DNA of 39,328 bases from Burkholderiales bacterium (GTDB lineage Bacteria > Pseudomonadota > Gammaproteobacteria > Burkholderiales > SG8-39). Positions 11,090-36,971 of the stretch are shown here, piece after piece. Below the pieces are notes generated by a model. That model saw nothing but the letters and a program-made list of their open reading frames with translations. It searched no databases and was not told the DNA's origin. The DNA lies in contig DASUUN010000078.1 of the NCBI GenBank assembly GCA_036374055.1, positions 1-39,328 of the forward strand. The letters are read 5' to 3'. Position numbers and translations under genes: made by a program. How positions within the stretch are numbered: the stretch's first letter is position 1; every line of letters starts with the position of its first letter.

Positions 11090-11106
11090 CTTAAGGGAGC
11101 CTTAAC
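11090..11106 (-). promoter_or_regulatory. PmrA/QseB-type direct-repeat box CTTAAG-GGAGC-CTTAAC
   Basis: Two hexamers 11 bp apart. The box overlaps the PRC-barrel gene's stop and lies 26 nt upstream of the substrate-binding protein ATG. TAAAAT lies 16 nt from the proximal half-site. Confidence 0.55.
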
Positions 11107-11647: not shown

Positions 11648-11690
11648 CGGCGCAGCCTTGGCCGCGTACGCAACTTGCAAAGGTGGTGGC

Positions 11691-12350
11691 ATGCGCCTTT
11701 TGTTGGTGGAAGACGACCGCATGATCGGCGAAAACATCCGCGACGGGCTGGTGCAGGAAGGCCACGCGGTTGATTGGGTGCGTGACGGCTTGGAGGCCGA
11801 AGCAGCGATCCGCGGCGAGCGCTACGGTGCGGTGCTGCTCGACCTGGGGCTGCCGCGGCGCGACGGCATCGAGGTACTGCGCCGGCTGCGCGCGCTCGAC
11901 AACCCGGTCCCGGTGCTCGTCATTACGGCGCGCGACGCCGTGGCCGACCGCGTGCGCGGGCTGGATGCGGGCGCCGACGACTACCTGGTTAAGCCTTTCG
12001 ACCTGGACGAGCTGGCCGCCCGGGTGCGGGCCCTGACCCGGCGCGCCGCCGGACGCACGGCGGGGATCGTGCGGCACGGTGCGATTACGCTGGACCCGGC
12101 GAGGCGCGAAGTGCGCGTGAGCGGCAGGCCCGTAGCGCTGTCCGCGCGCGAGTATGCGGTGCTCGAAGCGCTCATCGAGCGGCCGGGGAGCGTGCTGTCG
12201 CGGGCGCAGCTCGAGGAGCGGCTCTACGGCTGGGGCGAAGAAGTGGCGAGCAATGCGGTCGAAGTCCACGTGCACAACCTTCGGCGCAAGCTGGGCGCCG
12301 ATCTCATCCGCAACGAGCGCGGCGTCGGCTATTCCATGCCGGTGACCTAG
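11691..12350 (+). CDS. OmpR/PhoB-family response regulator (PmrA/QseB/TctD-like)
   Basis: Receiver RLLLVEDD...LLDLGLP...DDYLVKPF and winged-helix LSAREYAVLEAL...VEVHVHNLRRKL...RGVGY. ATG 11691 lies behind AAGGTGG. Confidence 0.9.
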   Translation: MRLLLVEDDRMIGENIRDGLVQEGHAVDWVRDGLEAEAAIRGERYGAVLLDLGLPRRDGIEVLRRLRALDNPVPVLVITARDAVADRVRGLDAGADDYLVKPFDLDELAARVRALTRRAAGRTAGIVRHGAITLDPARREVRVSGRPVALSAREYAVLEALIERPGSVLSRAQLEERLYGWGEEVASNAVEVHVHNLRRKLGADLIRNERGVGYSMPVT

Positions 12351-13669
12351 TGTCGCTGCGGCGCCGCCTGCTGCTCGCGCTGCTCGGCGCGGTGCTCGCG
12401 TGCGGACTGCTGGCGAGCGCGGCCACCTACTACGCCGCGCGCTCCGAGGTGCAGGCGCTGCTGGACGAGGAGCTTCGCCAGGTGGCGCTGTCGCTGCGGG
12501 ATCACGCGCTGCTGGATCTGCGACCGCTCGGTTCGCCGGCGGGCGAGCACGGTCGCCGCGTCGTGGTGCAGATCTGGGACCGGCACGGATTCGCGAGCTA
12601 CCTCTCGAATGCCACCACGCCGCTGCCCTTGACCCTTACGCCCGGCTTCTCGACCCTGCCCCACGAGGGACGCGAGTGGCGCATGTTCACTCTGCGCGCG
12701 GGCGCGCAGGTGATCCAGGCGGCGCAGCCGACGGCCGAGCGCACCCAGCGCGCAGCAGCCGCCGCGCTGCGCGTGCTCGTTCCGGTGCTCGGCGCGCTGC
12801 CCTTGCTCACGGTGCTGGTGTGGCTGATCCTGGACCGCGGCTTCGCGCCGCTTTCGCGCCTGGCCAGCGCCGTCGGCGCGCGCAGCGCCCCGGCGCTCGA
12901 GCCGCTGCCCGCCGAGCGGGTGCCCGAGGAAGTGGCTCCGCTCGTCGGCGCGCTGAACAACCTTCTCGCGCGCCTGCGCGAGGCGTTCGACGTGCAGCGC
13001 CGCTTCGCCGCCGACGCGGCGCACGAGCTGCGCACGCCGCTCACCGCGCTCAAGCTGCAGATCCAGCTCCTCGAGCGGGCCCGGGGCGGCGACGAGCGCG
13101 CCACCGCCATTGCCGGCCTGAAGGAGCGAGCGCAGCGCGCGGAGCGCATCGTGCAGCAGCTCCTGGCCATGGCGCGGCTCGAGCCGGAAGCCGTCGAGCA
13201 CGCGCCGCAGCGCGTGGCCCTGGATGAAGTTGCGCGTGCGGTGGTCCGGGAGCTGTCGCCTCTGGCGACGCAGAAAGGCGTCCGGCTGCACCTCGCGCGC
13301 GCCCAGCCCGCCGGTGTACGGGGCGCGGAGGAAGCGCTGCGCCTTCTCGCCACGAACCTGGTCGACAACGCCATCCGCTACACACCGGCGGGCGGTGAAG
13401 TGCAGGTAAGCACGACGGGCGCGGAAGGTCTGGCGATTCTTCAGGTGAGCGACGACGGCCCGGGGATTCCCGCTGCCGAGCGCGAGCGGGTGTTCGATCG
13501 CTTCTATCGCGGCGCGGCGGCGCCGGAAGGCGGCAGCGGGCTCGGTCTGGCGATCGTGCGCCGGGTGGCCCAGCTCCATGGCGCTCGCGTGGAGCTGGCC
13601 GAGGGCCTGCAGGGCCGTGGGCTGACGACGCGCTTGGTTGCGCCGGCCGCAGACCAAGCGACGCCTTAA
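12350..13669 (+). CDS. sensor histidine kinase (QseC/PmrB-like, 2CSK_N-type periplasmic loop)
   Basis: GTG start overlaps the regulator stop (TAGTG). Two TM helices, H-box FAADAAHELRTPLT, N box NLVDNAIRYTP, G boxes DDGPGIP and GSGLGLAIV. Confidence 0.9.
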   Translation: MSLRRRLLLALLGAVLACGLLASAATYYAARSEVQALLDEELRQVALSLRDHALLDLRPLGSPAGEHGRRVVVQIWDRHGFASYLSNATTPLPLTLTPGFSTLPHEGREWRMFTLRAGAQVIQAAQPTAERTQRAAAAALRVLVPVLGALPLLTVLVWLILDRGFAPLSRLASAVGARSAPALEPLPAERVPEEVAPLVGALNNLLARLREAFDVQRRFAADAAHELRTPLTALKLQIQLLERARGGDERATAIAGLKERAQRAERIVQQLLAMARLEPEAVEHAPQRVALDEVARAVVRELSPLATQKGVRLHLARAQPAGVRGAEEALRLLATNLVDNAIRYTPAGGEVQVSTTGAEGLAILQVSDDGPGIPAAERERVFDRFYRGAAAPEGGSGLGLAIVRRVAQLHGARVELAEGLQGRGLTTRLVAPAADQATP

Positions 13670-13681
13670 GCGCCAGCTAAG
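13665..13681 (+). promoter_or_regulatory. imperfect PmrA/QseB-type box CTTAAG-CGCCA-GCTAAG upstream of DegQ-1
   Basis: Overlaps the kinase stop codon. It is followed by 10 nt, then CAAGCT (-10-like), then a 34-nt leader with an AGGAGA RBS before ATG 13732. Confidence 0.5.
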
Positions 13682-13731
13682 CGTCGCGGGTCAAGCTGGC
13701 GCCCCGGCTCATAACGAACCCAGGAGACAGC

Positions 13732-15150
13732 ATGAACTCAGCAGCAACCTTCAAGCGCCCGCTGATCGCGCTCGCCGTTGCCTCGGTACTGGCAGCGGGC
13801 TGCAGCGAAGTGACGCTTCCCGGCGTGCGCAATGCCAATGCGGTGGCCGTACAGCCCTTCGCCGCACAAGCAGCGGCGAGCGCCCTTCCAGACTTCGCCT
13901 CGCTGGTCGAGCAGCACGGGCCGGCGGTAGTGAAGATCGAGGTGAGCAAGGTGCAGCGCGCCTCGCTGCCCGAGCAGGCGCCGCCCCAGCTCGACGAATT
14001 CTTCCGGCACTTCGGCGTTCCGCGGCCCGAGGGCCGCCTCATGCCGAACCCCGCGCCCGCGCAGGGCGTGGGCTCGGGCTTCGTCGTCAGCCCGGACGGC
14101 ACGATCCTCACCAATGCGCACGTGGTCGACGGCGCCGGCGAAGTGACCGTGAAGCTGTCGGACAAGCGCGAATTCACGGCCAAGGTGGTCGGCGTGGATC
14201 GCATGACCGACGTCGCGGTCGTCAAGGTCGAAGCATCCGGCCTTCCGACCGTGAAGATCGGCGACCCGGCGAAGACGCGGGTCGGCGAATGGGTGGCGGC
14301 GATCGGCTCGCCGTTCGGCATGGACCACTCCGTCACCTCGGGCATCGTGTCGGCCAAGTCGCGCAACCTGCCGAACGAGCGCCTCGTGCCGTTCCTCCAG
14401 ACCGACGTCGCGGTGAACCCGGGCAACTCCGGCGGGCCGCTCTTCAACATGGCGGGCGAAGTGATCGGCATCAACTCGCAGATCTACAGCACCACGGGCG
14501 GCTACATGGGGATGTCGTTCGCCATCCCGATCGACGTGGCGATGAAGGTCAAGGAGCAGCTCGTGGCGCACGGCAAGGTGACGCGCGGGCGCATCGGCGT
14601 GACCGTCCAGCAAGTGACCCCGGCGCTCGCGCAGTCGTTCGGCCTGGACAAGCCGCGCGGCGCGCTCGTTTCGGGCATCGAGCCCGGCGGTCCGGCCGCT
14701 GACGGCGGCCTGCAGGCGGGCGACGTGGTCGTGGCCTTCAACGGCAAGCCGATCGCGAGCTCCGGCGAGCTGCCGGCGCTGGTGGCGGAGACCAAGCCCG
14801 GCGAGACCGTAAAGGTGGGCGTCGTGCGCAAGGGCGCCGAGCGGCAGATGCAGCTCACCGTAGGCGAAATGCCTTCGGAGCGCACCAGCGTCGCGGGCGC
14901 GCCGGCCCTGCAGCAGGGCAAGCTCGGCGTGTCCGTGCGGCCCGGCGACAAGGGGCTGGAGATCGAGCAGGCCGAGGGGCCGGCGGCCAAGGCCGGCCTG
15001 CGCGCCGGCGACATCATCGTCGGTGTCAACGGCACCCCGGTGCGCTCCATCGACGAGCTGCGAAACGCGGTAGAGGGCGCGGGCGGCAACCTGGCCATCC
15101 TCGTGCAGCGCGGCAACGCGCGCCTTTACGTTCCGGTGCAGATCGGCTAG
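13732..15150 (+). CDS. DegQ/MucD-family periplasmic serine endoprotease (HtrA), 2 PDZ domains
   Basis: Signal peptide. Catalytic motifs TNAHVV, DVAVVKV, GNSGGPL. Two PDZ segments (GALVSGIEPGGPAADGGLQAGDVV and GLRAGDIIVGVNG). Confidence 0.9.
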   Translation: MNSAATFKRPLIALAVASVLAAGCSEVTLPGVRNANAVAVQPFAAQAAASALPDFASLVEQHGPAVVKIEVSKVQRASLPEQAPPQLDEFFRHFGVPRPEGRLMPNPAPAQGVGSGFVVSPDGTILTNAHVVDGAGEVTVKLSDKREFTAKVVGVDRMTDVAVVKVEASGLPTVKIGDPAKTRVGEWVAAIGSPFGMDHSVTSGIVSAKSRNLPNERLVPFLQTDVAVNPGNSGGPLFNMAGEVIGINSQIYSTTGGYMGMSFAIPIDVAMKVKEQLVAHGKVTRGRIGVTVQQVTPALAQSFGLDKPRGALVSGIEPGGPAADGGLQAGDVVVAFNGKPIASSGELPALVAETKPGETVKVGVVRKGAERQMQLTVGEMPSERTSVAGAPALQQGKLGVSVRPGDKGLEIEQAEGPAAKAGLRAGDIIVGVNGTPVRSIDELRNAVEGAGGNLAILVQRGNARLYVPVQIG

Positions 15151-15229: not shown

Positions 15230-15871
15230 TTACTTGCGGTACTTGCTGTACTCGGACCGGCTCAAGCTGCCGTCGTTATCGGTATCAAGCCGCTGGAACG
15301 TCGATCCCGAGGAGGCGCTGCCGCCCGAGGAGGCGCTGCTGCCGCCCTGGCCGGACTGCGCTGTGGGCGAGCCGCCCGTGCACGCCACCTTGACCGAGCT
15401 GATGTCCTCGAAGAAGCCCAGCTTTTCGTCTAGGTCCGCCACCTTCTGCCCGGGCTTGAAGGTCGCCGCCCTTTGCTCGTAGTTCTCATTGTCGTACACG
15501 GTCAGCCTGGCCTTCGGCCCGACGGCGATGCTGTCGAATTCACCGCTCCAATCCGTGCCGAATGCGGTGCGCATGTTCGGCATGTCGACCGGACCGACCA
15601 GCGACAGCTGGTTGCCCTCGAAGTTGGTGCTGTCGTACAAGCGCGCCCAGCAGCCATTGCTGAAACTGTCCCGGCTCGCCACCTGAACCGGCACCAGCAC
15701 GATGAGCGGAGCGTTGGCGGCCGCGGTTGCGCCGCTCGAGCCGCTTTGCTTCTTGCTGCTCTGGCTGGGGCCGGAGGACTGCGGCTTATCCTGTTGGTTC
15801 TGCGCCATGGCGCCGGTTGCGGCGAAGGCCGCGGCTACACCTACTGCGAGAAGCTTCATCGAATGCATCAT
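15230..15871 (-). CDS. secreted beta/gamma-crystallin-like domain protein with C-terminal EF-hand
   Basis: Signal peptide MKLLAVGVAAAFAATGAMA. Greek-key motifs YDSTNFEG and YDNENYEQ. EF-hand loop DTDNDGSLSRSE. AGGAGG RBS. Confidence 0.7.
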   Translation of the reverse strand: MMHSMKLLAVGVAAAFAATGAMAQNQQDKPQSSGPSQSSKKQSGSSGATAAANAPLIVLVPVQVASRDSFSNGCWARLYDSTNFEGNQLSLVGPVDMPNMRTAFGTDWSGEFDSIAVGPKARLTVYDNENYEQRAATFKPGQKVADLDEKLGFFEDISSVKVACTGGSPTAQSGQGGSSASSGGSASSGSTFQRLDTDNDGSLSRSEYSKYRK

Positions 15872-15908: not shown

Positions 15909-15924
15909 CGCAAGCCCCGTTCCC
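15909..15924 (-). promoter_or_regulatory. sigma-54-type -24/-12 promoter GGGAACGGGGCTTGCG for the crystallin/EF-hand gene
   Basis: GG-N10-GC spacing with a TTGC -12 element. The predicted TSS is near 15898, giving a ~27-nt leader that contains the AGGAGG RBS. Confidence 0.5.
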
Positions 15925-16003: not shown

Positions 16004-16486
16004 TCAACGCTTCTGGCTGGTGCGCAGGTCCGGCGGCAGCTGCACCATCGCCTGCTGGGTGTCGAACAGCGCCTGGTTCGCCTGCTGCATGGCTTCGTTG
16101 CGCCGCGGTCCGGCAGGCTGCTTCGCCATCGCCTGCACTGCATCGCGCAGGCGCTGCGCCGCCTCCTGCAGTCGCTCCATCGACTTCGTGTAATTGGGCT
16201 CGGTGCCCGCCCCCATGCGCAGCTCCGGCGGCAGGTCGATCATGGCGCGCTGCGTCTCCACGATGGCTTCGCGGGCTTCGTCTGCTGCGGCATTGCGCCG
16301 CTCACCGGCGGGCTGCTGCGCCATCGCCTGCACCGCCTCACGCAGCTTCTGCGCCGCCTGCTGCAGGCGTACCATCGACTCGCCGTAGTTGGTGGGCGCA
16401 GTTGCGCCGCTGCTTTGCGCGGATGCCGCTCCTGCGCCGCCCAGGAAAGCAGCCGCCACCACGCTAACCAAGAATTTGCGATCCAT
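16004..16486 (-). CDS. periplasmic all-helical protein with two ~58-aa tandem repeats (unknown family)
   Basis: GAGGAGG RBS and signal peptide MDRKFLVSVVAAAFLGGAGAASA. The repeats are NYGESMVRLQQAAQKLREAVQAMAQQPAG...LPPELR and NYTKSMERLQEAAQRLRDAVQAMAKQPAG...LPPDLR. Confidence 0.7.
   Translation of the reverse strand: MDRKFLVSVVAAAFLGGAGAASAQSSGATAPTNYGESMVRLQQAAQKLREAVQAMAQQPAGERRNAAADEAREAIVETQRAMIDLPPELRMGAGTEPNYTKSMERLQEAAQRLRDAVQAMAKQPAGPRRNEAMQQANQALFDTQQAMVQLPPDLRTSQKR
16025..16390 (-). repeat. in-frame tandem duplication (2 x ~174 nt, period 192 nt) inside gene 16004..16486
   Basis: Repeat units at about 16217-16390 and 16025-16198 encode clearly related peptide units. Confidence 0.7.
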
Positions 16487-16516
16487 AGGACCTCCTCGTG
16501 TAAATGGCGCCTGCCG

Positions 16517-16532
16517 TGCAAAGGCCGTTCCG
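16517..16532 (-). promoter_or_regulatory. sigma-54-type promoter CGGAACGGCCTTTGCA for gene 16486(-)
   Basis: GG-N10-GC spacing with a perfect TTGCA -12 element. The predicted TSS is near 16506, giving a 20-nt leader with GAGGAGG. Confidence 0.55.
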
Positions 16533-16547
16533 GGCACGGCCGTTGCA
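16532..16547 (+). promoter_or_regulatory. sigma-54-type promoter GGGCACGGCCGTTGCA for the PRC-barrel operon
   Basis: Matches GGCACG-N4-TTGCA. Its -24 element shares G16532 with the divergent promoter. GTG 16559 lies exactly 13 nt after the -12 C. Confidence 0.65.
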
Positions 16548-16558
16548 CCGGGGACGGC

Positions 16559-17773
16559 GTGCAGCCCGTGAACAACTTTCTCTTTGCATCTTTTCGCGCC
16601 GGCGCGCTTATCGGGACGCTGCTGCTGGCGTGCGGCGCGCAGGCGGCGCCGGTAAGCGCAGGCGCGCTGCTGGGTGCCCGCGTGGCCGACGCTGAAGGCG
16701 CGCAGCTCGGGACGATTCACGACCTTGCAGTGGACGTCGCTGCCGGTTACGTGCGCTATGCGATCGTCGAAAAAGCCGAGACCAGCCGTAACCAGCGCGA
16801 AGTGCGCGCCGCACCGATCACCGCGCTGCGGCCCGGGCTTGCGCGCGGCCAGCTGGTGCTGGAGTCGCGCACTCAGGTTCCGCCGGGCAATGCCGGCGGC
16901 TACCTCATGCGGGCCAAAGCGATCCTCGGCAGGCCGATCGATCATCCGACCGGCGCCGATTACGGAACCATCCGCGACGTCTTCTTCGAGCTGGAAAGCG
17001 GGCGCGTGCTGCACGCCGAGGTTTCCCTGGAGGCGGCAGCGAACGGCGTAAAGCGCAAGGTGCCATTCGATGCGCTGCGTTTTCCGCCGGCCCAGCCCAA
17101 CGCCATCCTGACGCTCGGGTCCGCCACCCTGCCGGCAAGCCAGCTGATCGGCATGGAGGTGCGCAACCGGGATGCCGGCACCAAAGGCCGCATCGACGAG
17201 CTGGTGGTGGACTTGCATAACAGCCGCGTGCACTACGTCGTGCTCGACATGGAGCACCGGTTGATCACCGAGCCCCTCGAGCGACTATCGTTTACGCCGG
17301 GCAGGCAATACGCCGTATTGCCGAACGCGACCCGCGGCATCGCAGAGCCGCGCGCCGGAATGACGCTGGCACGCGCGAGCGAGCTGATCGGCTGGGAGTT
17401 CGAGAACGAGCCCGGCGTCGACTTGGGCGTCATCAGCGATCTTTCCATCGACCCGCAAACCGGCAGGGTTTCGCACGCGCTCGTGCGGCTGCACGAGGCG
17501 CCGGGCCGTATGCAGCGGCTCGAGCTCAGCCGATTTTCGATGTCGCCGTGGCGCGAGAACCTGGTGCTCGCCGAGCCCTCCGCCGCCGCCGGCGCCACCA
17601 CACCCGCCGGCGGCGTCAATCTCTTCGAGCGGCTCGATCGCGACGGCAATGGTTTTATCGAGGATTCCGAGCTCGATAGCGGTATCGTCGGCCGCAGAAA
17701 CTGGATCGCCGTCGACCTCGATCGCGATGACCGGATCAGTCGGGACGAGTTCACCGCCATGCGCACGCAATGA
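16559..17773 (+). CDS. secreted protein with four PRC-barrel domains and a C-terminal EF-hand pair
   Basis: Signal peptide FRAGALIGTLLLACGAQA. Four units of type LLGARVADAEGAQLGTIHDLAVDVAAGYVRYAIV. EF loops DRDGNGFIEDSE and DLDRDDRISRDE. GTG 16559 chosen, with GTG 16568 as the alternative. Confidence 0.75.
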   Translation: MQPVNNFLFASFRAGALIGTLLLACGAQAAPVSAGALLGARVADAEGAQLGTIHDLAVDVAAGYVRYAIVEKAETSRNQREVRAAPITALRPGLARGQLVLESRTQVPPGNAGGYLMRAKAILGRPIDHPTGADYGTIRDVFFELESGRVLHAEVSLEAAANGVKRKVPFDALRFPPAQPNAILTLGSATLPASQLIGMEVRNRDAGTKGRIDELVVDLHNSRVHYVVLDMEHRLITEPLERLSFTPGRQYAVLPNATRGIAEPRAGMTLARASELIGWEFENEPGVDLGVISDLSIDPQTGRVSHALVRLHEAPGRMQRLELSRFSMSPWRENLVLAEPSAAAGATTPAGGVNLFERLDRDGNGFIEDSELDSGIVGRRNWIAVDLDRDDRISRDEFTAMRTQ

Positions 17774-18321
17774 AGCTGATCCTCGTGCTCCTGGCGGGTG
17801 CCCTGCTCGCTCCCGCCGCGCCCTTGCACGCCGACAACAAGGCGCAGGTACGCGCAACGGAGCTTTTCGGCAGCCGGCTCATAGACAAGGGTGGCGAGGC
17901 GCTCGGCGAAATCGGCGACCTGGTGTTCGACGCGCGCAACGGGGCGCTGCGCTCGGTGGTGGTCGACGGCGTTGCTTTGCCGGTGAGCCGGCTGCTGCCC
18001 GAGGCGGGCGGCCGGCGCTACATCCTGACGGAGCCCGACGACACCCGCCCGACCGCCTTTGCCGAGCCCCGCTGGCCTTCGATGCGCGCAAGCCGCCTGG
18101 TCAGCCATGAGGTAGTCGACCGCCTGCACCGCGATTTCGGCGAGATTCGGGACGTCCTGGTGGATCTCGACCGACGCCGGGTGGGCGGAGTGATCATCGA
18201 TCGCAGAGACGACTGGCAGGCCGGACAGGCGCTGGTCACCGTCCCTGTCGAGGCGCTGTCGCTGCCGCGCGATCTGGGCGACAAGGTGGCGCTCAACTAC
18301 TCCCGCGAGCGCCTCGAATAG
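17770..18321 (+). CDS. secreted PRC-barrel protein (2 barrels)
   Basis: ATGA start/stop overlap with the upstream gene. Signal peptide MKLILVLLAGALLAPAAPLHA. Barrel units LFGSRLIDKGGEALGEIGDLVFDARNGALRSVVV and LVSHEVVDRLHRDFGEIRDVLVDLDRRRVGGVII. Confidence 0.75.
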   Translation: MKLILVLLAGALLAPAAPLHADNKAQVRATELFGSRLIDKGGEALGEIGDLVFDARNGALRSVVVDGVALPVSRLLPEAGGRRYILTEPDDTRPTAFAEPRWPSMRASRLVSHEVVDRLHRDFGEIRDVLVDLDRRRVGGVIIDRRDDWQAGQALVTVPVEALSLPRDLGDKVALNYSRERLE

Positions 18322-18322
18322 C

Positions 18323-18338
18323 GGGCCCGCCGATTGCA
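18323..18338 (+). promoter_or_regulatory. sigma-54-like element GGGCCCGCCGATTGCA upstream of DegQ-2 (internal promoter candidate)
   Basis: GG-N10-GC spacing with a perfect TTGCA -12 element; the -24 lacks the A of GGCAC. The predicted TSS is near 18349, 26 nt before ATG 18375. Confidence 0.4.
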
Positions 18339-18374: not shown

Positions 18375-19811
18375 ATGAAAGTCCTCGCCTTCGTTCTAGC
18401 GGCCGTGCTGGCCGCGCCCGCCGCCGCCCAGGCTCAATCCCCGTCACAGGGCGCCACCGCGCCAACCCGGGAGGCCAACCTTCCGGATTTCACCGCGCTC
18501 GTGAAAAAGCAGGGACCGGCGGTCGTCAACGTAATCACTACACGCGCCGCTGCCCAAGGCGGGCCGGCGGGGCTGTCGCCCGATGATCCGTTCTACGAGT
18601 TCTTCCGCCGGTTCATGCCCGAAATGCCGGAAGGCGGGCCGCCGGGGCAGGGCGAAGGGCCGGGCGGCCAGGGCATCGGCTCGGGGTTCATCATCAGCCC
18701 GGACGGCTACATCCTCACCAACGCGCACGTCGTGGCCGGTTCGAAGGAAGTGACGGTGCGCATGGCCGACGCCAAGCGCGAGTTCAAGGCGCAAGTGGTG
18801 GGCACGGACGAGCGCACCGACGTGGCGCTGCTCAAGGTGGATCAGGACAACCTGCCGGTGGTGAAGCTCGGCAAGTCCAGCACGCTGGAGCCTGGCCAAT
18901 GGGTCGCGGCCATCGGCTCGCCGTTCGGATTCGCTAACACCATCACGGCCGGCATCGTCAGCGCCACCGAGCGCGCGCTGCCCGCGGAGACCTACCTGCC
19001 GTTCATCCAGACCGACGTGGCCGTGAATCCCGGCAACTCCGGAGGGCCGCTGCTCAACCTCGACGGCGAAGTGGTCGGCATCAACTCCATGATCTACAGC
19101 CGCACCGGCGGCTACATGGGCGTGTCCTTCGCCATCCCCATCGAAGAGGCGCTCGATGTCTCCAAGCAGCTGCGCGAGCACGGCAAGGTGACGCGCGGCC
19201 GCCTGGGCATCGGCATCCAGCCGGTCACCAAGGAGCTGGCGCAGTCCTTCAAGCTGGATTCCGCCAATGGCGTGGTGGTGGTGCAGGTCGAGCCGGGCAG
19301 CCCGGCGGAAAAGGCCGGCCTGCAAGTCGGCGACGTGATTCTCAGCTACAACGGCAAGACGATCGAAGAAGGCAACATGCTGCCGCGCCTGGTGGGCAAC
19401 ACCAAGCCCGGCCAGCAGGCGAAGCTCGAGATCTGGCGCAAAGGCGAACGCCAGACCGTGACCACGACGGTCGGCGAGCTCCAGCCACGGGCGGAACAAG
19501 CGGCGGCCGGCAAGGCACCCTCGGACGACAAGCCCAGCAAGCTCGGCCTTTCCGTGCGCGAGCTCGCGCCGGACGAGCGCAAGAAGCTCGGGGTCGAGTT
19601 CGGCGTGGTCGTCACCGACATCGCCCAGGGCGCCGCCGCGGCGCGCACGCCGATCCGGCGCGGCGACGTCATCGTGGCGGTCAACCAGGCGCGCTTCAAG
19701 AGCATCGAGGAGTTCAACAAGCTGATCGAGGCGCAGAAGAAAGGCGAGACCGTGGCGCTGCTCGTGCGTCGTGGCGAGGGTGCCATCTATGTCCCCATGG
19801 AAGTGGGGTAG
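18375..19811 (+). CDS. DegQ/MucD-family periplasmic serine endoprotease (HtrA), second copy
   Basis: Signal peptide MKVLAFVLAAVLAAPAAAQA. Catalytic motifs TNAHVV, DVALLKV and GNSGGPL. Two PDZ segments. By eye roughly 60% identical to the 13732 copy across the protease core. Confidence 0.9.
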   Translation: MKVLAFVLAAVLAAPAAAQAQSPSQGATAPTREANLPDFTALVKKQGPAVVNVITTRAAAQGGPAGLSPDDPFYEFFRRFMPEMPEGGPPGQGEGPGGQGIGSGFIISPDGYILTNAHVVAGSKEVTVRMADAKREFKAQVVGTDERTDVALLKVDQDNLPVVKLGKSSTLEPGQWVAAIGSPFGFANTITAGIVSATERALPAETYLPFIQTDVAVNPGNSGGPLLNLDGEVVGINSMIYSRTGGYMGVSFAIPIEEALDVSKQLREHGKVTRGRLGIGIQPVTKELAQSFKLDSANGVVVVQVEPGSPAEKAGLQVGDVILSYNGKTIEEGNMLPRLVGNTKPGQQAKLEIWRKGERQTVTTTVGELQPRAEQAAAGKAPSDDKPSKLGLSVRELAPDERKKLGVEFGVVVTDIAQGAAAARTPIRRGDVIVAVNQARFKSIEEFNKLIEAQKKGETVALLVRRGEGAIYVPMEVG

Positions 19812-20415
19812 CGTGCTGGCGGCGCTCCTCGCGCCGCCCATCGCGCTCGCCGCCGGGTGGATCCGGATGCCGGCGAGCGAGCTGCTCGGCAAGCCGGTGA
19901 TCGACATGCAAGGCGACCGGCTCGGCCGGGTACAGGACCTCGTGGTTGACGTGCGCAATTCGCGGGTGAGCTACGCGATCGTAGGCTTCAACGGCTGGGG
20001 GACGTTGGGCGAAGAGCTGTTCCCCGTCCCGCTGAAATCGCTGGCGCCCGAGCCGGGCGGCTCGCGCGTGACGCTGCAGGTGGCTCCACGCACGCTGCGC
20101 GATGGCGCCTCGATCGACGCGCAAAGCGAGCCGCGGCTGCCGGCCGATGCGCCCCTCAAGCAACACGTACGCGCGAGCGAGCTCGTTGGCCGCCGCGTCA
20201 GCGACCGCACCGGCACGCATGCCGGCGAGATCGAGGAGGCGGTGATCGACATGAACAGCGGGCTCGTGCTTTTCCTCCTGTTCGACTACGACGAGGCCTG
20301 GGGGCTCGATCAGCCGGCGCTGCGCATGGCGCCGCAGGCCTTCAGCTTCCCGGCCGATGGCGGCCCTGCCGTCGTCAACGTGGCGCGCGAGCGCCTTGAA
20401 GACCCCGGTCGCTAG
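19789..20415 (+). CDS. secreted PRC-barrel protein (2 barrels)
   Basis: ATG 19789 overlaps the DegQ-2 3' end by 23 nt. Signal-like MSPWKWGSVLAALLAPPIALAAG. Barrel units LLGKPVIDMQGDRLGRVQDLVVDVRNSRVSYAIV and LVGRRVSDRTGTHAGEIEEAVIDMNSGLVLFLLF. Confidence 0.7.
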   Translation: MSPWKWGSVLAALLAPPIALAAGWIRMPASELLGKPVIDMQGDRLGRVQDLVVDVRNSRVSYAIVGFNGWGTLGEELFPVPLKSLAPEPGGSRVTLQVAPRTLRDGASIDAQSEPRLPADAPLKQHVRASELVGRRVSDRTGTHAGEIEEAVIDMNSGLVLFLLFDYDEAWGLDQPALRMAPQAFSFPADGGPAVVNVARERLEDPGR

Positions 20416-20577
20416 CGTCGCCGCCGCTCGTATCGCCGCCGGCGAGCGGCGGCATGCCACGAAGCGGGCGTAGAACACCGCGATGAGCTGAAAGCCGAAC
20501 AGCGCCTGGATGCCCGGCAGCACCATGCGGCACTCTTCCAGGAGATGACTGGTGGCGGCATCGATCGCCGACCGCAC
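20416..20577 (-). pseudogene. possible 5' remnant of a DUF6328-type membrane protein gene
   Basis: The translation SHLLEECRMVLPGIQALFGFQLIAVFYARF resembles the conserved first TM region of DUF6328 proteins as I recall it. The rest of the family is missing, and the frame runs on as antisense of the PRC gene. Confidence 0.3.
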
Positions 20578-20613
20578 CGCAACTCCCGTGCCGGCCGCGG
20601 CCGCGGCTCCAAG

Positions 20614-20629
20614 GGGAACGCAGCTTGCG
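20614..20629 (+). promoter_or_regulatory. sigma-54-type element GGGAACGCAGCTTGCG upstream of small ORF 20655
   Basis: GG-N10-GC spacing with TTGC. The predicted TSS is near 20640, followed by GGAGGA (20643-20648) and GTG 20655. Confidence 0.45.
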
Positions 20630-20654
20630 GTGTGCCGTATTTGGAGGAAGCGTC

Positions 20655-20882
20655 GTGCTGCGATTGCGCTCATTAGGACCCGGCGATCTTTTCATCGTCC
20701 CGGAGGGCGAGCAGGGATGCTGGGCGAGCTTTTTCTCCGGCAAGGAATACCGCCCGCCCGGGGTGCAGTTCACCGGGCGCACGTATATCGAGTCCTTCGA
20801 GCCGAAGGCTCAGGCGGTGGTGGAGCCGCCGCTGCAGCAGGTGGCGGCGCGCGGTTCCTCAAGCAGGCCGAAAGCCTGGTGA
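20655..20882 (+). CDS. small hypothetical protein (75 aa) with cupin-like strand motif
   Basis: GTG start 6 nt after GGAGGA. LGPGDLFIVPEGEQGCW resembles the C-terminal strands of small cupins. GC3 is only moderately high. Confidence 0.4.
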   Translation: MLRLRSLGPGDLFIVPEGEQGCWASFFSGKEYRPPGVQFTGRTYIESFEPKAQAVVEPPLQQVAARGSSSRPKAW

Positions 20883-20952: not shown

Positions 20953-22755
20953 ATGGCGAAAACCACGGTGGGAGATTTTCTGCTGGCGCGCCTCGCGCAA
21001 TGGGGCGTGCGGCGCGTCTACGGTTATCCGGGCGACGGCATCAACGGCATCATGGGCGCCTTCGGGCGCGCCGAGGGAACGCCCGCGGGCAAGCTGCAGT
21101 TCGTGCAGGCGCGCCACGAGGAACTCGCCGCCTTCATGGCCTGCGCCCACGCCAAGTTCACGGGCGAGGTGGGGGTGTGCCTTGCGACCTCGGGCCCGGG
21201 CGCGATCCACCTGCTGAACGGGCTGTACGACGCGAAGCTCGACCACCAGCCGGTGCTCGCCATCATCGGCCAGCAGAAGCGCGCCGCCATGGGCGGCGAC
21301 TACCAGCAGGAAGTCGACCTGATGACGCTCTTCAAGGACGTGGCGCACGAGTACGTGCACACGGCGATGAACCCGGCGCAGGTGCGCCACCTGGTCGACC
21401 GCGCGATGCGCATCGCCATGGACCGGCGCACCGTCACCTGCCTCATCTTCCCGAACGACGTGCAGGAGCTCGACGCGGTCAAGGTCCCGCCACACAAGCA
21501 CGGCACGGTCCACACCGGCATCGGCTACACCGCGGCCGCGGGCGCGCCCAACGCCCACGAGCTGAAGCACGCCGCCGAAGTGCTCAATGCCGGCAAGCGC
21601 GTGGCGATCCTCGTGGGCGCCGGGGCGCTGCACGCGACCGATGAGGTCATGGAAGTCGCGGAGCTCCTCGGCGCCGGCGTGGCCAAGGCCCTGCTCGGCA
21701 AGGCCGCGCTGCCCGACGAGCTGCCGTACGTGACCGGCTCCATCGGCCTGCTCGGCACTACGCCGAGCTGGGAAATGATGACCGGTTGCGACACGCTGCT
21801 CATGGTGGGCTCGGGATTCCCGTATTCCGAATTCCTGCCGGAGGAAGGCCAGGCGCGCGGCGTGCAGATCGACATCGACGGGCGCATGCTCAGCCTACGC
21901 TACCCGATGGACGTGAATCTCGTCGGCGACAGCAAGGAGACGCTGCGCGCGCTGATGCCTTTCCTCATGAAAAAGACCGACCGGCAGTGGCGCAGCGGGA
22001 TCGAGGCGAGCGTGGCCCGCTGGTGGCAGGTGCTCGAAGCGCGCGCCATGAACGAAGCAAAGCCGATCAACCCCCAGCGCGTATTCTGGGAGCTCTCGCC
22101 GCGGCTGCCGGACAACTGCATCCTTACCTGTGATTCCGGCTCCGCCGCCAACTGGTATGCGCGCGACCTGAAGATCCGGCGCGGCATGATGGCATCGCTT
22201 TCGGGCGGCCTGGCCACCATGGGCCCCGCGGTGCCCTACGCCATCGCGGCGAAGTACGCGCATCCCGAGCGCCCGGTGATCGCGCTGCTCGGCGACGGCG
22301 CCATGCAGATGAACGGCATGAACGGCCTCATCACCATCGCCAAGATCTGGAAGGAATGGCGCGATCCGCGCCTCACCGTGATGATGCTGAACAACGGCGA
22401 CCTGAACCAGGTGACCTGGGAGCAGCGCGCGATGCAGGGCGACCCGAAGTTCGAAACCTCGCAGGTGGTACCGGATTTCCCGTATGCGGAATACGCGCGC
22501 CTGCTCGGCCTGGGCGGCATCCGGGTCGAGCGGCCGGAGGATATCGGGCCCGCCTGGGAGCGCGCGCTCGCCGCCGACAAGCCCACGGTGCTGGAGATGG
22601 TCACGGACCCCAACGTGCCGCCGCTGCCGCCGCACATCACTTTCGAGCAGGCCAAGGCCTACCTTTCGGCGCTCATCAAGCGCGACCCGGATTCGGTGCG
22701 CATGGTGACCGCCTCGGCCAAGGAATGGTGGGACGGCGTCAGGCCGCGAAGGTGA
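20953..22755 (+). CDS. thiamine pyrophosphate-dependent enzyme, pyruvate oxidase/pyruvate dehydrogenase (quinone)-like
   Basis: TPP N-domain GYPGDGINGIM...ATSGPGAIHLLNGLYDA and TPP-binding motif LLGDGAMQMNG...NNGDLN. 600 aa. Confidence 0.85.
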   Translation: MAKTTVGDFLLARLAQWGVRRVYGYPGDGINGIMGAFGRAEGTPAGKLQFVQARHEELAAFMACAHAKFTGEVGVCLATSGPGAIHLLNGLYDAKLDHQPVLAIIGQQKRAAMGGDYQQEVDLMTLFKDVAHEYVHTAMNPAQVRHLVDRAMRIAMDRRTVTCLIFPNDVQELDAVKVPPHKHGTVHTGIGYTAAAGAPNAHELKHAAEVLNAGKRVAILVGAGALHATDEVMEVAELLGAGVAKALLGKAALPDELPYVTGSIGLLGTTPSWEMMTGCDTLLMVGSGFPYSEFLPEEGQARGVQIDIDGRMLSLRYPMDVNLVGDSKETLRALMPFLMKKTDRQWRSGIEASVARWWQVLEARAMNEAKPINPQRVFWELSPRLPDNCILTCDSGSAANWYARDLKIRRGMMASLSGGLATMGPAVPYAIAAKYAHPERPVIALLGDGAMQMNGMNGLITIAKIWKEWRDPRLTVMMLNNGDLNQVTWEQRAMQGDPKFETSQVVPDFPYAEYARLLGLGGIRVERPEDIGPAWERALAADKPTVLEMVTDPNVPPLPPHITFEQAKAYLSALIKRDPDSVRMVTASAKEWWDGVRPRR

Positions 22756-22770
22756 GCCAATAAGCGGATG

Positions 22771-22803
22771 GCCGCCCGAGGGCTGCAGAGCCCTCAGGGC
22801 GGC
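22771..22803. terminator. GC-rich hairpin between convergent genes
   Basis: GCCGCCCGAGGGCT-GCAG-AGCCCTCAGGGCGGC with one bulge, starting 16 nt after the TPP enzyme stop. It includes the stop codon of the minus-strand gene. Confidence 0.5.
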
Positions 22804-23216
22804 AGGCGGCTCGCGATCACCGCGCGAAAGCGCTCGGCCGCGGCCTCCCAGCCGTAACGTGCGTGCCATTCGGGCAGATCGATGAGGTCGAGCTGCGTCA
22901 GTTCCCTGCACGCCCGGTGCACGGCCGCCATCGCCGCCGGATTCAGGCAGCTCGGCAGGAACCGGCAGCAGTGGAATGGAAGGTCGCGGGTCGCGGGGTT
23001 GCTCTTCACCTTGTCGAGCAGCACCGGCATCAGCGAGTCGTCGAAGTGCAGCCCGGCCACGATCGCATGGATGCCGCCTTGCGCGAGGCGCACGAGCGCT
23101 TCCTCGATGGTGAAGACGTAGTGAAGCTCGGCGAACCCGTCCAGGCACCGGGCGACGATGTGGCTGGACTTCCGGCTGGCCGCCACAAGGATGCAGGGCT
23201 TTGCTGAGTGGCCCAC
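22794..23216 (-). CDS. CheY-like pseudo-receiver protein (phospho-acceptor position not Asp)
   Basis: The receiver-like pattern CILVAAS...IHAIVAGLHFDDSLMPVLLDKVK has Gly where the acceptor Asp is expected. GTG 23216 is preferred. The longer form, starting at ATG 23291, would contain both divergent promoters and sit 14 nt from the neighbour's ATG. Confidence 0.5.
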   Translation of the reverse strand: MGHSAKPCILVAASRKSSHIVARCLDGFAELHYVFTIEEALVRLAQGGIHAIVAGLHFDDSLMPVLLDKVKSNPATRDLPFHCCRFLPSCLNPAAMAAVHRACRELTQLDLIDLPEWHARYGWEAAAERFRAVIASRLPP

Positions 23217-23226
23217 CACCAGGCGT

Positions 23227-23242
23227 TGCACGCGTTGTGCCC
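23227..23242 (-). promoter_or_regulatory. sigma-54-type promoter GGGCACAACGCGTGCA for the pseudo-receiver gene
   Basis: GGCAC -24 and GTGCA -12 elements. GTG 23216 lies 12 nt after the -12 C. Confidence 0.5.
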
Positions 23243-23256
23243 GGGCGGACGGCGCA

Positions 23257-23272
23257 TGGCACGCGCTTTGCG
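23257..23272 (+). promoter_or_regulatory. sigma-54 promoter TGGCACGCGCTTTGCG for the EF-hand/PG-binding gene
   Basis: Full consensus TGGCAC-N5-TTGC. The predicted TSS is near 23283, giving a 23-nt leader with AAGGAGG 6 nt before ATG 23306. Confidence 0.75.
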
Positions 23273-23305: not shown

Positions 23306-23893
23306 ATGAATATGCGCCTTACCGTATCCATTCTGCCTGCAGCAGTCGCGCTCGCCCTGGCCGGTCCGCTTCACGCCGCCGACGTGCCGAACTTCAATCA
23401 GATGGACAAGAACAACGACGGCCAGCTTACGAAAAGCGAGGCTCAGGCAAACCCGAAGCTTGCCGACCAGTTCAGCCAGGTCGACGACGACAACAACGGC
23501 ACGTTAAGCCGCCCCGAGTATCTCGCCATCATGGGGCGCCAGGACCTGCACAACCTGCGCGAAAATCTCGCCGAGTTCCTCGATCCCGAGGGCAAGCCGC
23601 CGCTTGCCGCCAGCGGCGAGCAGGGCAAGCAGGAGCCGACGAAAGCCGTAAGCGAGCAGCTGGTGCGCAACGTGCAGCAGACGCTTTCCGACAAGGGCAT
23701 CGACGCCGGCCCGGTGGACGGCATCTGGGGTGCGCGCACCAGCTCCGGCGTGCGCCAGTTCCAGAAGGCCCAGGGCATGCAGCCCACCGGCCAGCTCAAC
23801 GCGAAGACGCTTAGCGCGCTTGGCATCGCCGAGGGCTCGGCCTCAGCTGGACAAAGCGGCGCGCCCGCTGAAGAAAGCGGCAAGCAGCGCTGA
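23306..23893 (+). CDS. secreted EF-hand pair protein fused to a peptidoglycan-binding (PG_binding_1-like) domain
   Basis: Signal peptide MNMRLTVSILPAAVALALAGPLHA. EF loops DKNNDGQLTKSE and DDDNNGTLSRPE. The C-terminal VQQTLSDKGIDAGPVDGIWGARTSSGVRQFQKAQGMQPTGQLNAKT is a typical PG-binding repeat. Confidence 0.8.
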   Translation: MNMRLTVSILPAAVALALAGPLHAADVPNFNQMDKNNDGQLTKSEAQANPKLADQFSQVDDDNNGTLSRPEYLAIMGRQDLHNLRENLAEFLDPEGKPPLAASGEQGKQEPTKAVSEQLVRNVQQTLSDKGIDAGPVDGIWGARTSSGVRQFQKAQGMQPTGQLNAKTLSALGIAEGSASAGQSGAPAEESGKQR

Positions 23894-27881: not shown

Positions 27882-27897
27882 GGGCACGTTCGCTGCT
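27882..27897 (+). promoter_or_regulatory. sigma-54-type promoter GGGCACGTTCGCTGCT for PRC-barrel/EF-hand gene 27937
   Basis: GGCACG-N4-CTGCT. The predicted TSS is near 27908, giving a 29-nt leader with an AAAGGAGA RBS. Confidence 0.65.
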
Positions 27898-27936: not shown

Positions 27937-29103
27937 ATGAAATCGCTTAAACCTCTATTGCTGAGCTTCTCGCTGCTCGCCTTCACCGGCGCGTACGCGC
28001 AGGACGCAAAGAAGGAAAAGGACCAGACGCAGGCAAAACCTGCCATGTCCCAGGCCGATTCGAAGGATGACAAGGCCTCCGGCAGCGCAGCGAAGCAGTC
28101 GCAGCAAAGCTCCGGCGCTTCGGCCGGCGCGAGCAGCTCCACCAGCGGCGCCGGGATGGCGGGCGGGATGAGCGTCAAGAACCTGCGCGGCATGGACGTG
28201 GTGGACTCGCAGGGCAAGGACCTCGGCGAGATCGACGAGGTGATGCTCGACATGGCCGACGGCCGCGTGCATTCCGTGGTGCTCGGCTTCGGCGGTTTTC
28301 TCGGCCTGGGCGAGAAGCACTTCGCCTTCCTGGTAAGCGACCTGCAGCCCGCCAAGGAAAAGAACAAGCTGCAGCTCAACGTCGACAAGGAGAAGCTGAA
28401 GGACCGCGAAGGCTTCGCCAAGGGCAAGTACCCGGCCCCCGACGATGATTACTGGGCGAAAGTCGGCCAGGGCGACAAGTCGGGCGCGGCCGCCGGGGCG
28501 ACCGGCCAGAAGGCGAGCGTCATGCGCGCGAGCAAGGTCATCGGCCAGGACGTCCAGGACAAGAGCGGCCAGGATGTCGGCGAGGTGAAGGACATCGTGC
28601 TCAGCTCGGACCGTACGCGCATCCAGCACGTCGTGCTCGACGTGAAAGGCGCCGGCGAAGCCACGCTCCCGCCGAAGTCCCTGTCGATGGGCAAGGAAGG
28701 CGACAAGCTGGTCGTCGATATGTCGAGCGAGCAGCTGAAGAGCCAGGCGAAGCCCGCTGCCGGCGCGAGCAGCGGCGCGAGCACCACCCGTACGGTCCCG
28801 ATCGAGCGGGACAAGCAGTCCCAGGCCGATACCAAGCCTTCGGGCAGCGCCTCCGCCGGCGCCGGCAGCAGCTCGGCCGGGACGAGCGCGTCGAAGAAGG
28901 GCTTCGCCGAGCTCGACCGCGATAACGACGGCTCCCTGAGCCGGATGGAAGCCGCGGCCGACGCCAACGCCAAATCCAACTTCGAGTCGCTGGACAAGAA
29001 CAGCGACAAGAAGCTGTCACGCTCCGAGTACGAGGGTGGCCAGGGCGCCGCGGCCGGCGCGACGGGCTCGAAGCAAAGCGAGCAGAAGGATAAGTCGAAG
29101 TAA
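27937..29103 (+). CDS. secreted protein with two PRC-barrel domains, low-complexity linkers and a C-terminal EF-hand pair
   Basis: Signal peptide MKSLKPLLLSFSLLAFTGAYA. Barrel units LRGMDVVDSQGKDLGEIDEVMLDMADGRVHSVVL and VIGQDVQDKSGQDVGEVKDIVLSSDRTRIQHVVL. EF loops DRDNDGSLSRME and DKNSDKKLSRSE. Confidence 0.8.
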   Translation: MKSLKPLLLSFSLLAFTGAYAQDAKKEKDQTQAKPAMSQADSKDDKASGSAAKQSQQSSGASAGASSSTSGAGMAGGMSVKNLRGMDVVDSQGKDLGEIDEVMLDMADGRVHSVVLGFGGFLGLGEKHFAFLVSDLQPAKEKNKLQLNVDKEKLKDREGFAKGKYPAPDDDYWAKVGQGDKSGAAAGATGQKASVMRASKVIGQDVQDKSGQDVGEVKDIVLSSDRTRIQHVVLDVKGAGEATLPPKSLSMGKEGDKLVVDMSSEQLKSQAKPAAGASSGASTTRTVPIERDKQSQADTKPSGSASAGAGSSSAGTSASKKGFAELDRDNDGSLSRMEAAADANAKSNFESLDKNSDKKLSRSEYEGGQGAAAGATGSKQSEQKDKSK

Positions 29104-29122: not shown

Positions 29123-29155
29123 GGAAACGGGCTTTCGGGCCCGTTTCCCTTTTTT
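29123..29155 (+). terminator. rho-independent terminator
   Basis: GGAAACGGGC-TTTCGG-GCCCGTTTCC is a 10-bp stem followed by CTTTTTT, starting 20 nt after the stop at 29103. Confidence 0.85.
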
Positions 29156-29311: not shown

Positions 29312-29327
29312 GGGCACGCCGGCTGCT
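29312..29327 (+). promoter_or_regulatory. sigma-54-type promoter GGGCACGCCGGCTGCT for the PPC/DUF296 gene
   Basis: Same GGGCACG-N4-CTGCT form as at 27882 and 35432. ATG 29341 lies 15 nt after the -12 C, a near-leaderless placement. Confidence 0.6.
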
Positions 29328-29340
29328 TGCGTCTACCGAC

Positions 29341-29787
29341 ATGCGTGCAAAACTGCTCAACAGCGACGGCGAGCGGGTGTTCGCCGTCATCTTCGACATC
29401 GGCGAGGACCCGGTCAGCGGCCTCGTTCGCTTCGCCGAGGAGCGGGACCTGAGCGCTTCAGGCTTCACCGCGATCGGCGCTTTCAGCGAGGCGCTGCTCG
29501 GCTACTTCGACTGGGAAAAGAAGGACTACGAGCGCATCCCGGTGAACGAGCAAACCGAGGTGCTCGCCCTGGTCGGCGACATCGCCGTGCAGGAGGGCGG
29601 GCAAAAGAAAGTGCATGCGCACGTGGTGCTTGGGCGGCGGGACGGGGCGGCCTGCGGCGGACATCTCCTCTCGGCGAAGGTGCGGCCTACGCTCGAAGTG
29701 ATTCTCACCGAGTCGCCCGGATACCTGACCCGGGTGCACGACCCCGAGACCGGCCTTGCCTTGATCCGCATCGGGCGCGGCGCATAG
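29341..29787 (+). CDS. PPC (DUF296) domain protein
   Basis: The FAVIFDIGEDPVSGLVRFAEE...GFTAIGAFS...GDIA...HAHVVLG pattern is typical of the PPC/DUF296 fold. Confidence 0.65.
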   Translation: MRAKLLNSDGERVFAVIFDIGEDPVSGLVRFAEERDLSASGFTAIGAFSEALLGYFDWEKKDYERIPVNEQTEVLALVGDIAVQEGGQKKVHAHVVLGRRDGAACGGHLLSAKVRPTLEVILTESPGYLTRVHDPETGLALIRIGRGA

Positions 29788-30800: not shown

Positions 30801-30816
30801 CGCACGAATCGTGCCG
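30801..30816 (-). promoter_or_regulatory. sigma-54-type promoter CGGCACGATTCGTGCG for the PRC-barrel/crystallin operon
   Basis: GGCACG -24 and GTGCG -12 elements. ATG 30789 lies exactly 13 nt after the -12 C. Confidence 0.6.
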
Positions 30817-30831
30817 GGCGCGGCGCTTGCA
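30816..30831 (+). promoter_or_regulatory. sigma-54-like promoter GGGCGCGGCGCTTGCA for ORF 30843
   Basis: GG-N10-GC spacing with a perfect TTGCA. It shares G30816 with the divergent promoter. GTG 30843 lies exactly 13 nt after the -12 C. Confidence 0.5.
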
Positions 30832-35166: not shown

Positions 35167-35431
35167 TACTGCTTTCTTGCGAGCGCCCGCGCAAGCTCCT
35201 TCTTGCTCATCCCCGAGCGTCCGGCGTGTCGGGAAGCTTCTGTCGGCCAGGCATGAAGTTCTCCTTTCACGCCTTTTGCAAACAAAGTTCGTGCCTGAAC
35301 CCAGGCCGTTCTTTGCATTCGGGCGTCGCTCTGCGCGCGGCACGCGTCCCGGGAGGGAAATCGGTGCAACGGCCCGCTGTAAGAAAGTCGCGCGCCTTCG
35401 GCGGCAGGCGCGCTCTCGCTGCGCAGCAGCC

Positions 35432-35447
35432 GGGCACGCTGTCTGCT
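35432..35447 (+). promoter_or_regulatory. sigma-54-type promoter GGGCACGCTGTCTGCT for PRC-barrel gene 35491
   Basis: GGCACG-N4-CTGCT. The predicted TSS is near 35458, giving a 33-nt leader with an AAAGGAA RBS. Confidence 0.65.
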
Positions 35448-36955: not shown

Positions 36956-36971
36956 GGGCCTGAACTTTGCA
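36956..36971 (+). promoter_or_regulatory. sigma-54-like promoter GGGCCTGAACTTTGCA for the chalcone-isomerase-like gene
   Basis: GG-N10-GC spacing with a perfect TTGCA. ATG 36983 lies exactly 13 nt after the -12 C. Confidence 0.45.

Follow-up and report, generated by a model that had tools for sequence, protein, structure and literature searches.

Abutting -24/-12 motifs as probable divergent sigma-54-type promoter pairs among genes for exported proteins in a Burkholderiales contig

The window analysed here is a 39,328-nt metagenomic Burkholderiales contig of 69% G+C. Between 11102 and 36225 it carries an unusual concentration of PRC-barrel genes, several of them fused to EF-hands. Six exported PRC-barrel genes are assigned with confidence (at 16568, 17770, 19771, 27937, 30184, and 35491), a weak match lies at 11102, and two DegP/HtrA and two beta/gamma-crystallin-like genes are interspersed among them. 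Genes were called from open reading frames and Pfam matches; GC3 frame plots were too noisy for gene calling. An Rfam scan of the window returned no RNA family, and the best plasmid-borne relatives of two window proteins, found by tblastn, are in Mitsuaria (57% identity) and Cupriavidus (73% identity). These are weak taxonomic hints; taken with the Burkholderiales genomes that carry the module described below, they make a betaproteobacterial source likely. At 11688–15150, the genes for a response regulator of the OmpR type, a sensor kinase, and DegP stand in a row, an order that is repeated on a related JGI contig. In addition to the sigma-54-type regulon described below, the window may thus hold another envelope-stress circuit here, of sigma-70 type; the OmpR-type regulator next to the DegP gene is no sigma-54 activator.

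Between 15.9 and 37 kb, approximately 15 sites match the -24/-12 motif of sigma-54 promoters, four divergent pairs plus about seven arms that stand alone (Table 1). One pair, W1, occupies the 31-bp segment TGCAAAGGCCGTTCCGGGCACGGCCGTTGCA at 16517–16547, which carries the motif on each strand, as the initial annotation had read it. The minus arm (16532 to 16517) and the plus arm (16532–16547) are 13/16 identical, and base pair 16532, at which the annotation had the GG elements abut, is indeed common to both, forming the -26 position of each. The GG doublets lie 3 bp apart in the geometry CC, one base, GG. Measured against the 12 specified consensus positions, plus arm GGGCACGGCCGTTGCA has one mismatch and minus arm CGGAACGGCCTTTGCA two. 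The pair yields position-weight-matrix scores of 13.0 and 15.0, ranks 4 and 2 in the whole window. If both are promoters, the minus arm would transcribe the gene for a secreted 160-aa protein and the plus arm the PRC-barrel/EF-hand operon from 16559 or 16568, with starts about 12 nt past each 16-mer, at roughly 16505 and 16559 and ~54 bp apart. A third match, on the plus strand at 16505–16520 (TGGCGCCTGCCGTGCA), scores 9.3 and runs into W1 from the left; it is probably an incidental reuse of palindromic TGCA.

Table 1 Arms matching the -24/-12 motif, the genes they face, and compared loci. Offset gives, in nt, how far past the 16-mer end the start codon lies; SD, Shine-Dalgarno; empty cells, no entry.
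Feature	Position	Strand	Sequence	Predicted start and downstream gene	Start codon
W1 minus arm	16517..16532	-	CGGAACGGCCTTTGCA	start ~16505-16506; gene 16004-16486, secreted 160-aa repeat protein	SD GAGGAGG, ATG at offset 31
W1 plus arm	16532..16547	+	GGGCACGGCCGTTGCA	start ~16558-16559; PRC-barrel/EF-hand gene ending at 17773, then PRC gene 17770-18321 in the same operon	in-frame GTG 16559 (offset 12) or GTG 16568
W2 minus arm	30801	-	CGGCACGATTCGTGCG	PRC-barrel gene 30184-30789	ATG 30789, offset 12
W2 plus arm	30816	+	GGGCGCGGCGCTTGCA	ORF 30843-31430	GTG 30843, offset 12
W3, 14-bp gap between arms	23227..23272				
W3 minus arm	23227-23242	-	GGGCACAACGCGTGCA	gene 22794-23216	GTG 23216, offset 11
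W3 plus arm	23257-23272	+	TGGCACGCGCTTTGCG	EF-hand/PG-binding gene 23306-23893	SD, ATG at offset 34
Fourth pair, 20-bp gap between arms	20578..20629				
Fourth pair, minus arm	20578-20593	-	CGGCACGGGAGTTGCG	short ORF	
Fourth pair, plus arm	20614-20629	+	GGGAACGCAGCTTGCG	small ORF 20652-20882; TPP enzyme gene 20953-22755 also downstream	SD, GTG at offset 26
Single arm	15909..15924	-	GGGAACGGGGCTTGCG	crystallin/EF-hand gene 15230-15871	
Single arm	18323..18338	+	GGGCCCGCCGATTGCA	DegP/HtrA gene 18375-19811 and PRC gene 19771-20415	
Single arm	27882..27897	+	GGGCACGTTCGCTGCT	PRC/EF-hand gene 27937-29103	
Single arm	29312..29327	+	GGGCACGCCGGCTGCT	PCC-domain gene 29341-29787	ATG 29341, offset 14, no SD
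Single arm	35432..35447	+	GGGCACGCTGTCTGCT	PRC-barrel gene 35491-36225	
Single arm	36956..36971	+	GGGCCTGAACTTTGCA	chalcone-isomerase-like gene 36983-37474	ATG 36983, offset 12
Weaker candidate	35281..35296	-	AGGCACGAACTTTGTT	faces DUF748/AsmA-like gene 32089-35166	
L061 short-class start codons	1608, 1664, 2842				offsets 14, 12, 12
Actinomycetota palindrome loci	L004, L008, L010-L014, L016, L017, L019, L021-L027, L029-L031, L033-L037, L040, L041, L043, L044, L046-L051, L053-L056				

The initial annotation had also reported that the 31-bp architecture recurs at 30801–30831 and, with a 14-bp gap, at 23227–23272, and the sequence bears out both. In the former, W2 (CGCACGAATCGTGCCGGGCGCGGCGCTTGCA), the arms abut with the CC-N-GG geometry of W1 in an intergenic space of 53 bp and are weaker, the minus arm having GTGCG as its -12 element (30801(-)) and the plus arm GGCGC as its -24 element (30816(+)). 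The latter is W3. The fourth pair (20578/20614), the ~seven single-arm sites, the ~15-promoter regulon, and the start codons at the predicted start were not part of that annotation. The short ORF faced by the 20578 minus arm (ATG 20528, MVLPGIQALFGFQLIAVF...) is a doubtful target: it runs antisense into the PRC gene 19771–20415, no Pfam match was found for it in 20416–20577 on the minus strand, and it may represent either what is left of a gene or antisense transcription.

The call at 35281..35296 is uncertain because its -12 element is poor, and sites at 11676(-) (TGCC for TGGC), 266(+), and 7689(+) were excluded as unconvincing. The sites share the local consensus (G/C)GG(C/A)ACG-N4-(T/C)TGC(A/G/T), which matches the canonical TGGCACG-N4-TTGCW and keeps a spacing of exactly 10 bp between the GG and GC doublets. 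Given the single arms and the variable arm spacing of the pairs (1, 14, and 20 bp), the functional unit is the 16-bp arm. The genes behind the sites encode mostly exported proteins (PRC-barrel, EF-hand, crystallin-like, and DegP proteins), and the ~15 sites together look like one regulon for exported/envelope proteins, whose members would be co-regulated. A strong hairpin resembling an intrinsic terminator, GGAAACGGGCTTTCGGGCCCGTTTCC followed by CTTTTTT, lies at 29123–29148, between the PRC/EF-hand gene 27937–29103 and the promoter at 29312.

Start-codon offsets follow a bimodal distribution. Seven window sites have a Shine-Dalgarno sequence and a start codon 26–44 nt away, while six window sites and three in L061, which includes the W2 ortholog, have a start codon at 11–14 nt, no Shine-Dalgarno sequence, and no room for a leader. 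The offset is exactly 12 in 6 of these 9 short-class sites. A genome-wide sigma-54 study places the transcription start 19 bp from the motif centre, which corresponds to an offset of 11–12 (PMC4591121). The sharp peak at offset 12 thus supports the promoter reading on both W2 strands and on the plus strand of W1, and the position of the start codons relative to the predicted start suggests that the short-class mRNAs may be leaderless. One metagenomic gene-pair family includes a YpfJ-like Zn_peptidase whose ATG lies at offset 13–14 and whose Pfam alignment begins at residue 1. The ORF at 30843–31430 calls for caution, since its first 25 residues are absent from most homologues (171–174 aa), and its first 25 codons (30843–30917) resemble the N-terminus of a different L061 gene (1664–1720) behind the same promoter arm. 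This odd N-terminus indicates a local rearrangement, and the comparison suggests a possible deletion or fusion in the window.

Orthologous loci were identified through protein homology, with the motif itself left out of the search. Homologues of the PRC/EF-hand protein are rare, all metagenomic, and at most 53% identical, and three contigs found through this protein include the upstream region. L001 reads ...AGCAACCGGCGTTCC-A-GGAATGCCGATTGCA, and in L057 the sequence is identical but for a central G; both retain the CC-N-GG geometry of W1. L002 reads CGCAAGACCCGTTCC-G-GGCAT..., its plus -12 element being displaced by a 12-bp tandem duplication (GGGCATGGTGAT GGGCATGGCGGT, at 1018–1050 of that contig). 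The GGAAC-N5-TTGC of the W1 minus arm is kept in all three. The W2 ortholog in L061, CGCATGAAACGTGCC-G-GGCGCAGCGCTTGCT, adjoins the orthologous PRC gene and has start codons at offsets 14 and 12. Both arms and their abutting geometry persist at ~50–70% protein identity (L001, L057, and L061; partly L002).

We scanned 185,579 species genomes with a strict symmetric pattern of 19 specified bases and obtained 53 stretches, versus ~4 expected under a uniform model. Burkholderiales account for 11/53 (Paraburkholderia bannensis, P. eburnea, P. sp. J67, P. sp. JHI869, Burkholderia sp. Ax-1719, and several MAGs), and in every one of the 11 the module separates two divergent genes that encode small secreted proteins and whose start codons stand 23–54 nt from the arms. 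The P. bannensis locus, L052, comes from strain NBRC 103871, and the P. eburnea locus, L007, from JCM 18070. Such a genome search for further quasi-palindromic modules had been proposed in the initial annotation, which had also suggested a reused module; the suggestion has held up, the abutting layout recurring not only within this contig but also in cultured Paraburkholderia, Burkholderiales MAGs, and soil metagenomes. Within the Paraburkholderia set the spacers drift and the -24 and -12 elements hold, the arm toward a Cys-rich gene always being GGAAC and the other arm always GGCAC. A stem-loop, CGCTGC-N6/7-GCAGCG followed by CCTC, is conserved between the module and the gene for a 145-aa secreted protein, in the predicted 5' leader of that gene (L005, L007, L015, L018, L020, L028, L042, and L052), with a compensatory change to CGCCGC...GCGGCG in L015.

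The remaining 42/53 genome matches come from Actinomycetota MAGs and are perfect palindromes of 31 bp, of which a genome has many copies, placed in intergenic contexts of every kind. Their carriers are Gaiellales, Thermoleophilia, Anoxymicrobiaceae, and unclassified MAGs, and each palindrome (for example TGCAACAAACGTGCCWGGCACGTTTGTTGCA) amounts to two back-to-back perfect sigma-54 consensus sites. It is odd that a repeat should equal two such sites, but these palindromes behave like a dispersed repeat and are a phenomenon distinct from the Burkholderiales modules.

A metagenome scan that allowed 0–30 bp between the arms gave at least 121 matches. Among the matches listed, 5 have a gap of 0 and none of these (0/5) has plausible gene starts on both sides; gaps of 1, 2, and 3 are represented by 23, 7, and 3 matches, respectively, with plausible gene starts on both sides in 25/33; and gaps of 4–30 contribute 83 matches, ~3.1 per gap, with such gene starts in 14/83. 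A 1-nt gap is ~7 times commoner than larger gaps among the matches listed, many of the gap-1 matches being orthologs of one locus and hence not independent. Abutment with a gap of 1–3 is found in at least six gene-pair families: W1, W2, the Paraburkholderia Cys-rich/145-aa pair, the MRKLF/MRKLL secreted pair, the Zn_peptidase/DUF4142 pair, and the PBP1A/small-protein pair. Inside a family the gap can vary by one base; compactness is preferred, with no strict helical phase.

In GC-rich DNA the matches could be a product of chance. With a loose consensus (≤3 mismatches) the whole window gave 159 matches versus 151 expected, that is, no enrichment, and bare GG-N10-GC is as common in the window as in shuffles, so the bare pattern proves nothing. 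However, a position-weighted scan, using a matrix for TGGCACG-N4-TTGCW set from the published consensus, found 13 matches in 3009 intergenic bases, whereas 300 dinucleotide shuffles of the intergenic segments gave 0.70 ± 0.77 with a maximum of 3. The density of matches is 4.3 per kb in intergenic versus 0.30 per kb in coding DNA; of the 21 best window matches, 14 belong to the DNA classed as intergenic, which makes up 7.65% of the window, and all intergenic matches are oriented toward a downstream gene start. These statistics, the fixed start-codon distance, and the conservation in orthologs already contradict an origin by chance, to which we assign a negligible probability.

We consider it likely, from the sequence, that both arms of the 31-bp segment are sigma-54 (RpoN)-type -24/-12 promoters. 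The W1 finding is real, and the pairs are probably functional divergent sigma-54-type promoter pairs, for which we infer recognition by sigma-54 holoenzyme, activator dependence, co-regulation, and, if there is any, competition between the arms. It is possible that only one arm of each abutting module works, the mirror arm being a by-product of quasi-palindrome homogenisation through template switching between closely spaced inverted repeats, with the facing gene transcribed from elsewhere. W1, L001, and several Paraburkholderia loci have arms that are near-copies down to their non-consensus spacers, which suggests copying, and the weaker W2 arms have imperfect -12 or -24 elements. Yet both flanking genes need a promoter and the intergenic spaces of 53–72 bp hold nothing else, W2 and L061 place a start codon at offset 12–14 for both arms, the arms are kept where the spacers are not complementary (W2, L061, L039, and L042), and the Paraburkholderia arms stay different according to the gene that they face. 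We regard a single working arm as unlikely. Alternatively, a dimeric regulator could bind the 31-bp unit as a palindromic operator, or the unit could form a cruciform or hairpin, its likeness to sigma-54 promoters being incidental in either case. W1, L001, and L052 do fold as extended hairpins (z -3.5 to -4.6), W1 and L001 being palindromic through their spacers (z = -3.5 each), and the strict pattern also retrieves the many repeat-like Actinomycetota palindromes. However, W2, L061, L039, and L042 form no hairpins (z +1.6 to -1.0), lone half-sites stand at seven unidirectional genes at an equal start-codon distance, and the arms are spaced variously, by 1, 14, or 20 bp in the window and 1–3 bp within families, with a 12-bp displacement in L002. 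The positions that do not vary, moreover, are the GG and GC doublets of sigma-54 sites, not contacts of dyad symmetry. A hairpin or operator was rejected as a general explanation because dyad symmetry of the whole unit at fixed spacing is not kept across the members, and this alternative is very improbable; the identical spacers in some lineages would be better explained by copying between close inverted repeats.

The bipartite motif might instead be a promoter for a different or specialised factor, either an unknown sigma factor or a second RpoN paralogue whose preference has changed, with activation rules that differ from those of textbook sigma-54. Several features of the sites would fit such a factor: no activator or enhancer was found in the window or compared loci, GGAAC often stands for GGCAC, G/C replaces T at -26, the promoters are unusually dense, many of the genes are probably leaderless, and many Burkholderiales, e.g. 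Ralstonia, have two rpoN genes. The Ralstonia case also figures in the title of PMC4371752. Against this, a GG-GC spacing of exactly 10 bp together with G at -20 and TTGC at -12 makes up the signature of sigma-54 itself, and we judge a specialised factor quite improbable. An ECF-type reading, with GGAAC as -35 and a -10 element 16–17 bp on, was also tried and rejected; the spacing is unfit, nothing is conserved 16–17 bp past GGAAC, and such a layout conflicts with start codons at offset 12.

Some observations count against sigma-54-type promoters as we read them. Fifteen such promoters within 21 kb are unusually dense, some arms are weak (both of those at W2), and the palindromic spacers of W1 and L001 are not required by two independent promoters. 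No rpoN gene is present in the window, a single 39-kb metagenomic contig, or in the compared loci, which are short contigs. No activator gene bearing a GAFTGA, Walker A, or ESELFGH signature was detected in the window or the compared loci, and no enhancer-like word is shared upstream of the 15 sites, where only the CGTTGCA of the partner arm emerged. No sigma-70-consensus promoter was found in 15–32 kb either, a result that speaks for the sigma-54-type reading.

Because the -24 elements abut, an activator site cannot fit between the two promoters; activation would have to rely on sites within the flanking genes or farther out, or on an activator without nearby DNA sites. In the closed complex, the RpoN box binds the -24 and the HTH the -12 element (PMC7057263). 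In the back-to-back arrangement the polymerase bodies would point away from each other and only the small -24-binding domains would be neighbours, which makes steric exclusion less obvious; the exclusion of two holoenzymes at abutting -24 sites, as proposed in the initial annotation, is therefore reasonable and plausible but not obvious.

The E. coli zraP and zraSR promoters are ZraR-activated sigma-54 promoters and offer the nearest parallel among textbook systems. Like W1, they are opposed -24/-12 promoters in one intergenic region and serve envelope/periplasmic stress proteins. In E. coli K-12, however, the GG doublets lie ~142 bp apart with the activator gene adjacent, and the inverted repeats between the promoters are taken to be ZraR sites, whereas the W1 doublets are 3 bp apart with nothing between them and no activator gene nearby. 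A zraP/zraSR-type pair, in which activator sites lie between promoters ~100 bp or more apart, does not fit W1 with its 3 bp. Warman et al. in 2021 reportedly described bidirectional sigma-70 promoters that arise from a symmetric -10 element. Those promoters resemble the present modules in that closely spaced divergent transcription issues from one compact DNA segment, but they use one symmetric element, whereas here each direction has a complete -24 and -12 and only the -26 bp is shared. The preponderance of exported and envelope proteins among the target genes agrees with the theme of sigma-54 as a controller of the bacterial exterior, reportedly set out by Francke et al. in 2011.

The usual sigma-54 scheme combines upstream activator sites with DNA looping (PMC7057263); the recognition elements and the predicted start distance found here equal those of canonical single sigma-54 promoters. 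Unlike the canonical case, upstream of each W1 promoter lie the other promoter and then the beginning of the divergent gene, the search upstream of the 15 sites detected no motif resembling an enhancer, and several promoters put the start codon at the start site. As far as the partial coverage of the sigma-54 literature surveyed extends, it contains neither the PRC-barrel, EF-hand, beta/gamma-crystallin, and DegP families nor the abutting architecture, and it describes no back-to-back or bidirectional sigma-54 layout, no PRC-barrel genes with RpoN, and no leaderless transcripts with sigma-54. We view the abutting pairs as a compact form of the known divergent sigma-54 layout, set apart by probable leaderless starts and by an apparent lack of a local enhancer.

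All of these features could be joined in a single reading, which we offer tentatively and think doubtful as a whole. The module would be a true bidirectional sigma-54 unit without a local enhancer, on which one holoenzyme or activator hexamer acts at a time, so that the two genes fire alternately or in a set ratio. Many transcripts would be leaderless, and the sites would belong to an undescribed envelope-stress regulon (PRC-barrel, EF-hand, DegP) in soil Burkholderiales, possibly under a dedicated RpoN paralogue or an activator lacking a DNA-binding domain.

Sigma-54 promoters are the bacterial model of enhancer-dependent transcription, with textbook activator sites ~100 bp upstream and DNA looping. 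In the recurrent back-to-back layout, only 3 bp separate the -24 doublets and an enhancer has no upstream DNA to occupy, which raises the questions of where the activator is positioned, whether two holoenzymes can fit on one site, and whether the two genes are coupled in expression. The leaderless geometry, if real, would tie the choice of a sigma-54 start site directly to the translation start. The presence of the module in cultured Paraburkholderia strains makes these points testable at the bench. If the promoter reading is true, it would assign a class of regulator to the poorly understood exported PRC-barrel/EF-hand proteins.
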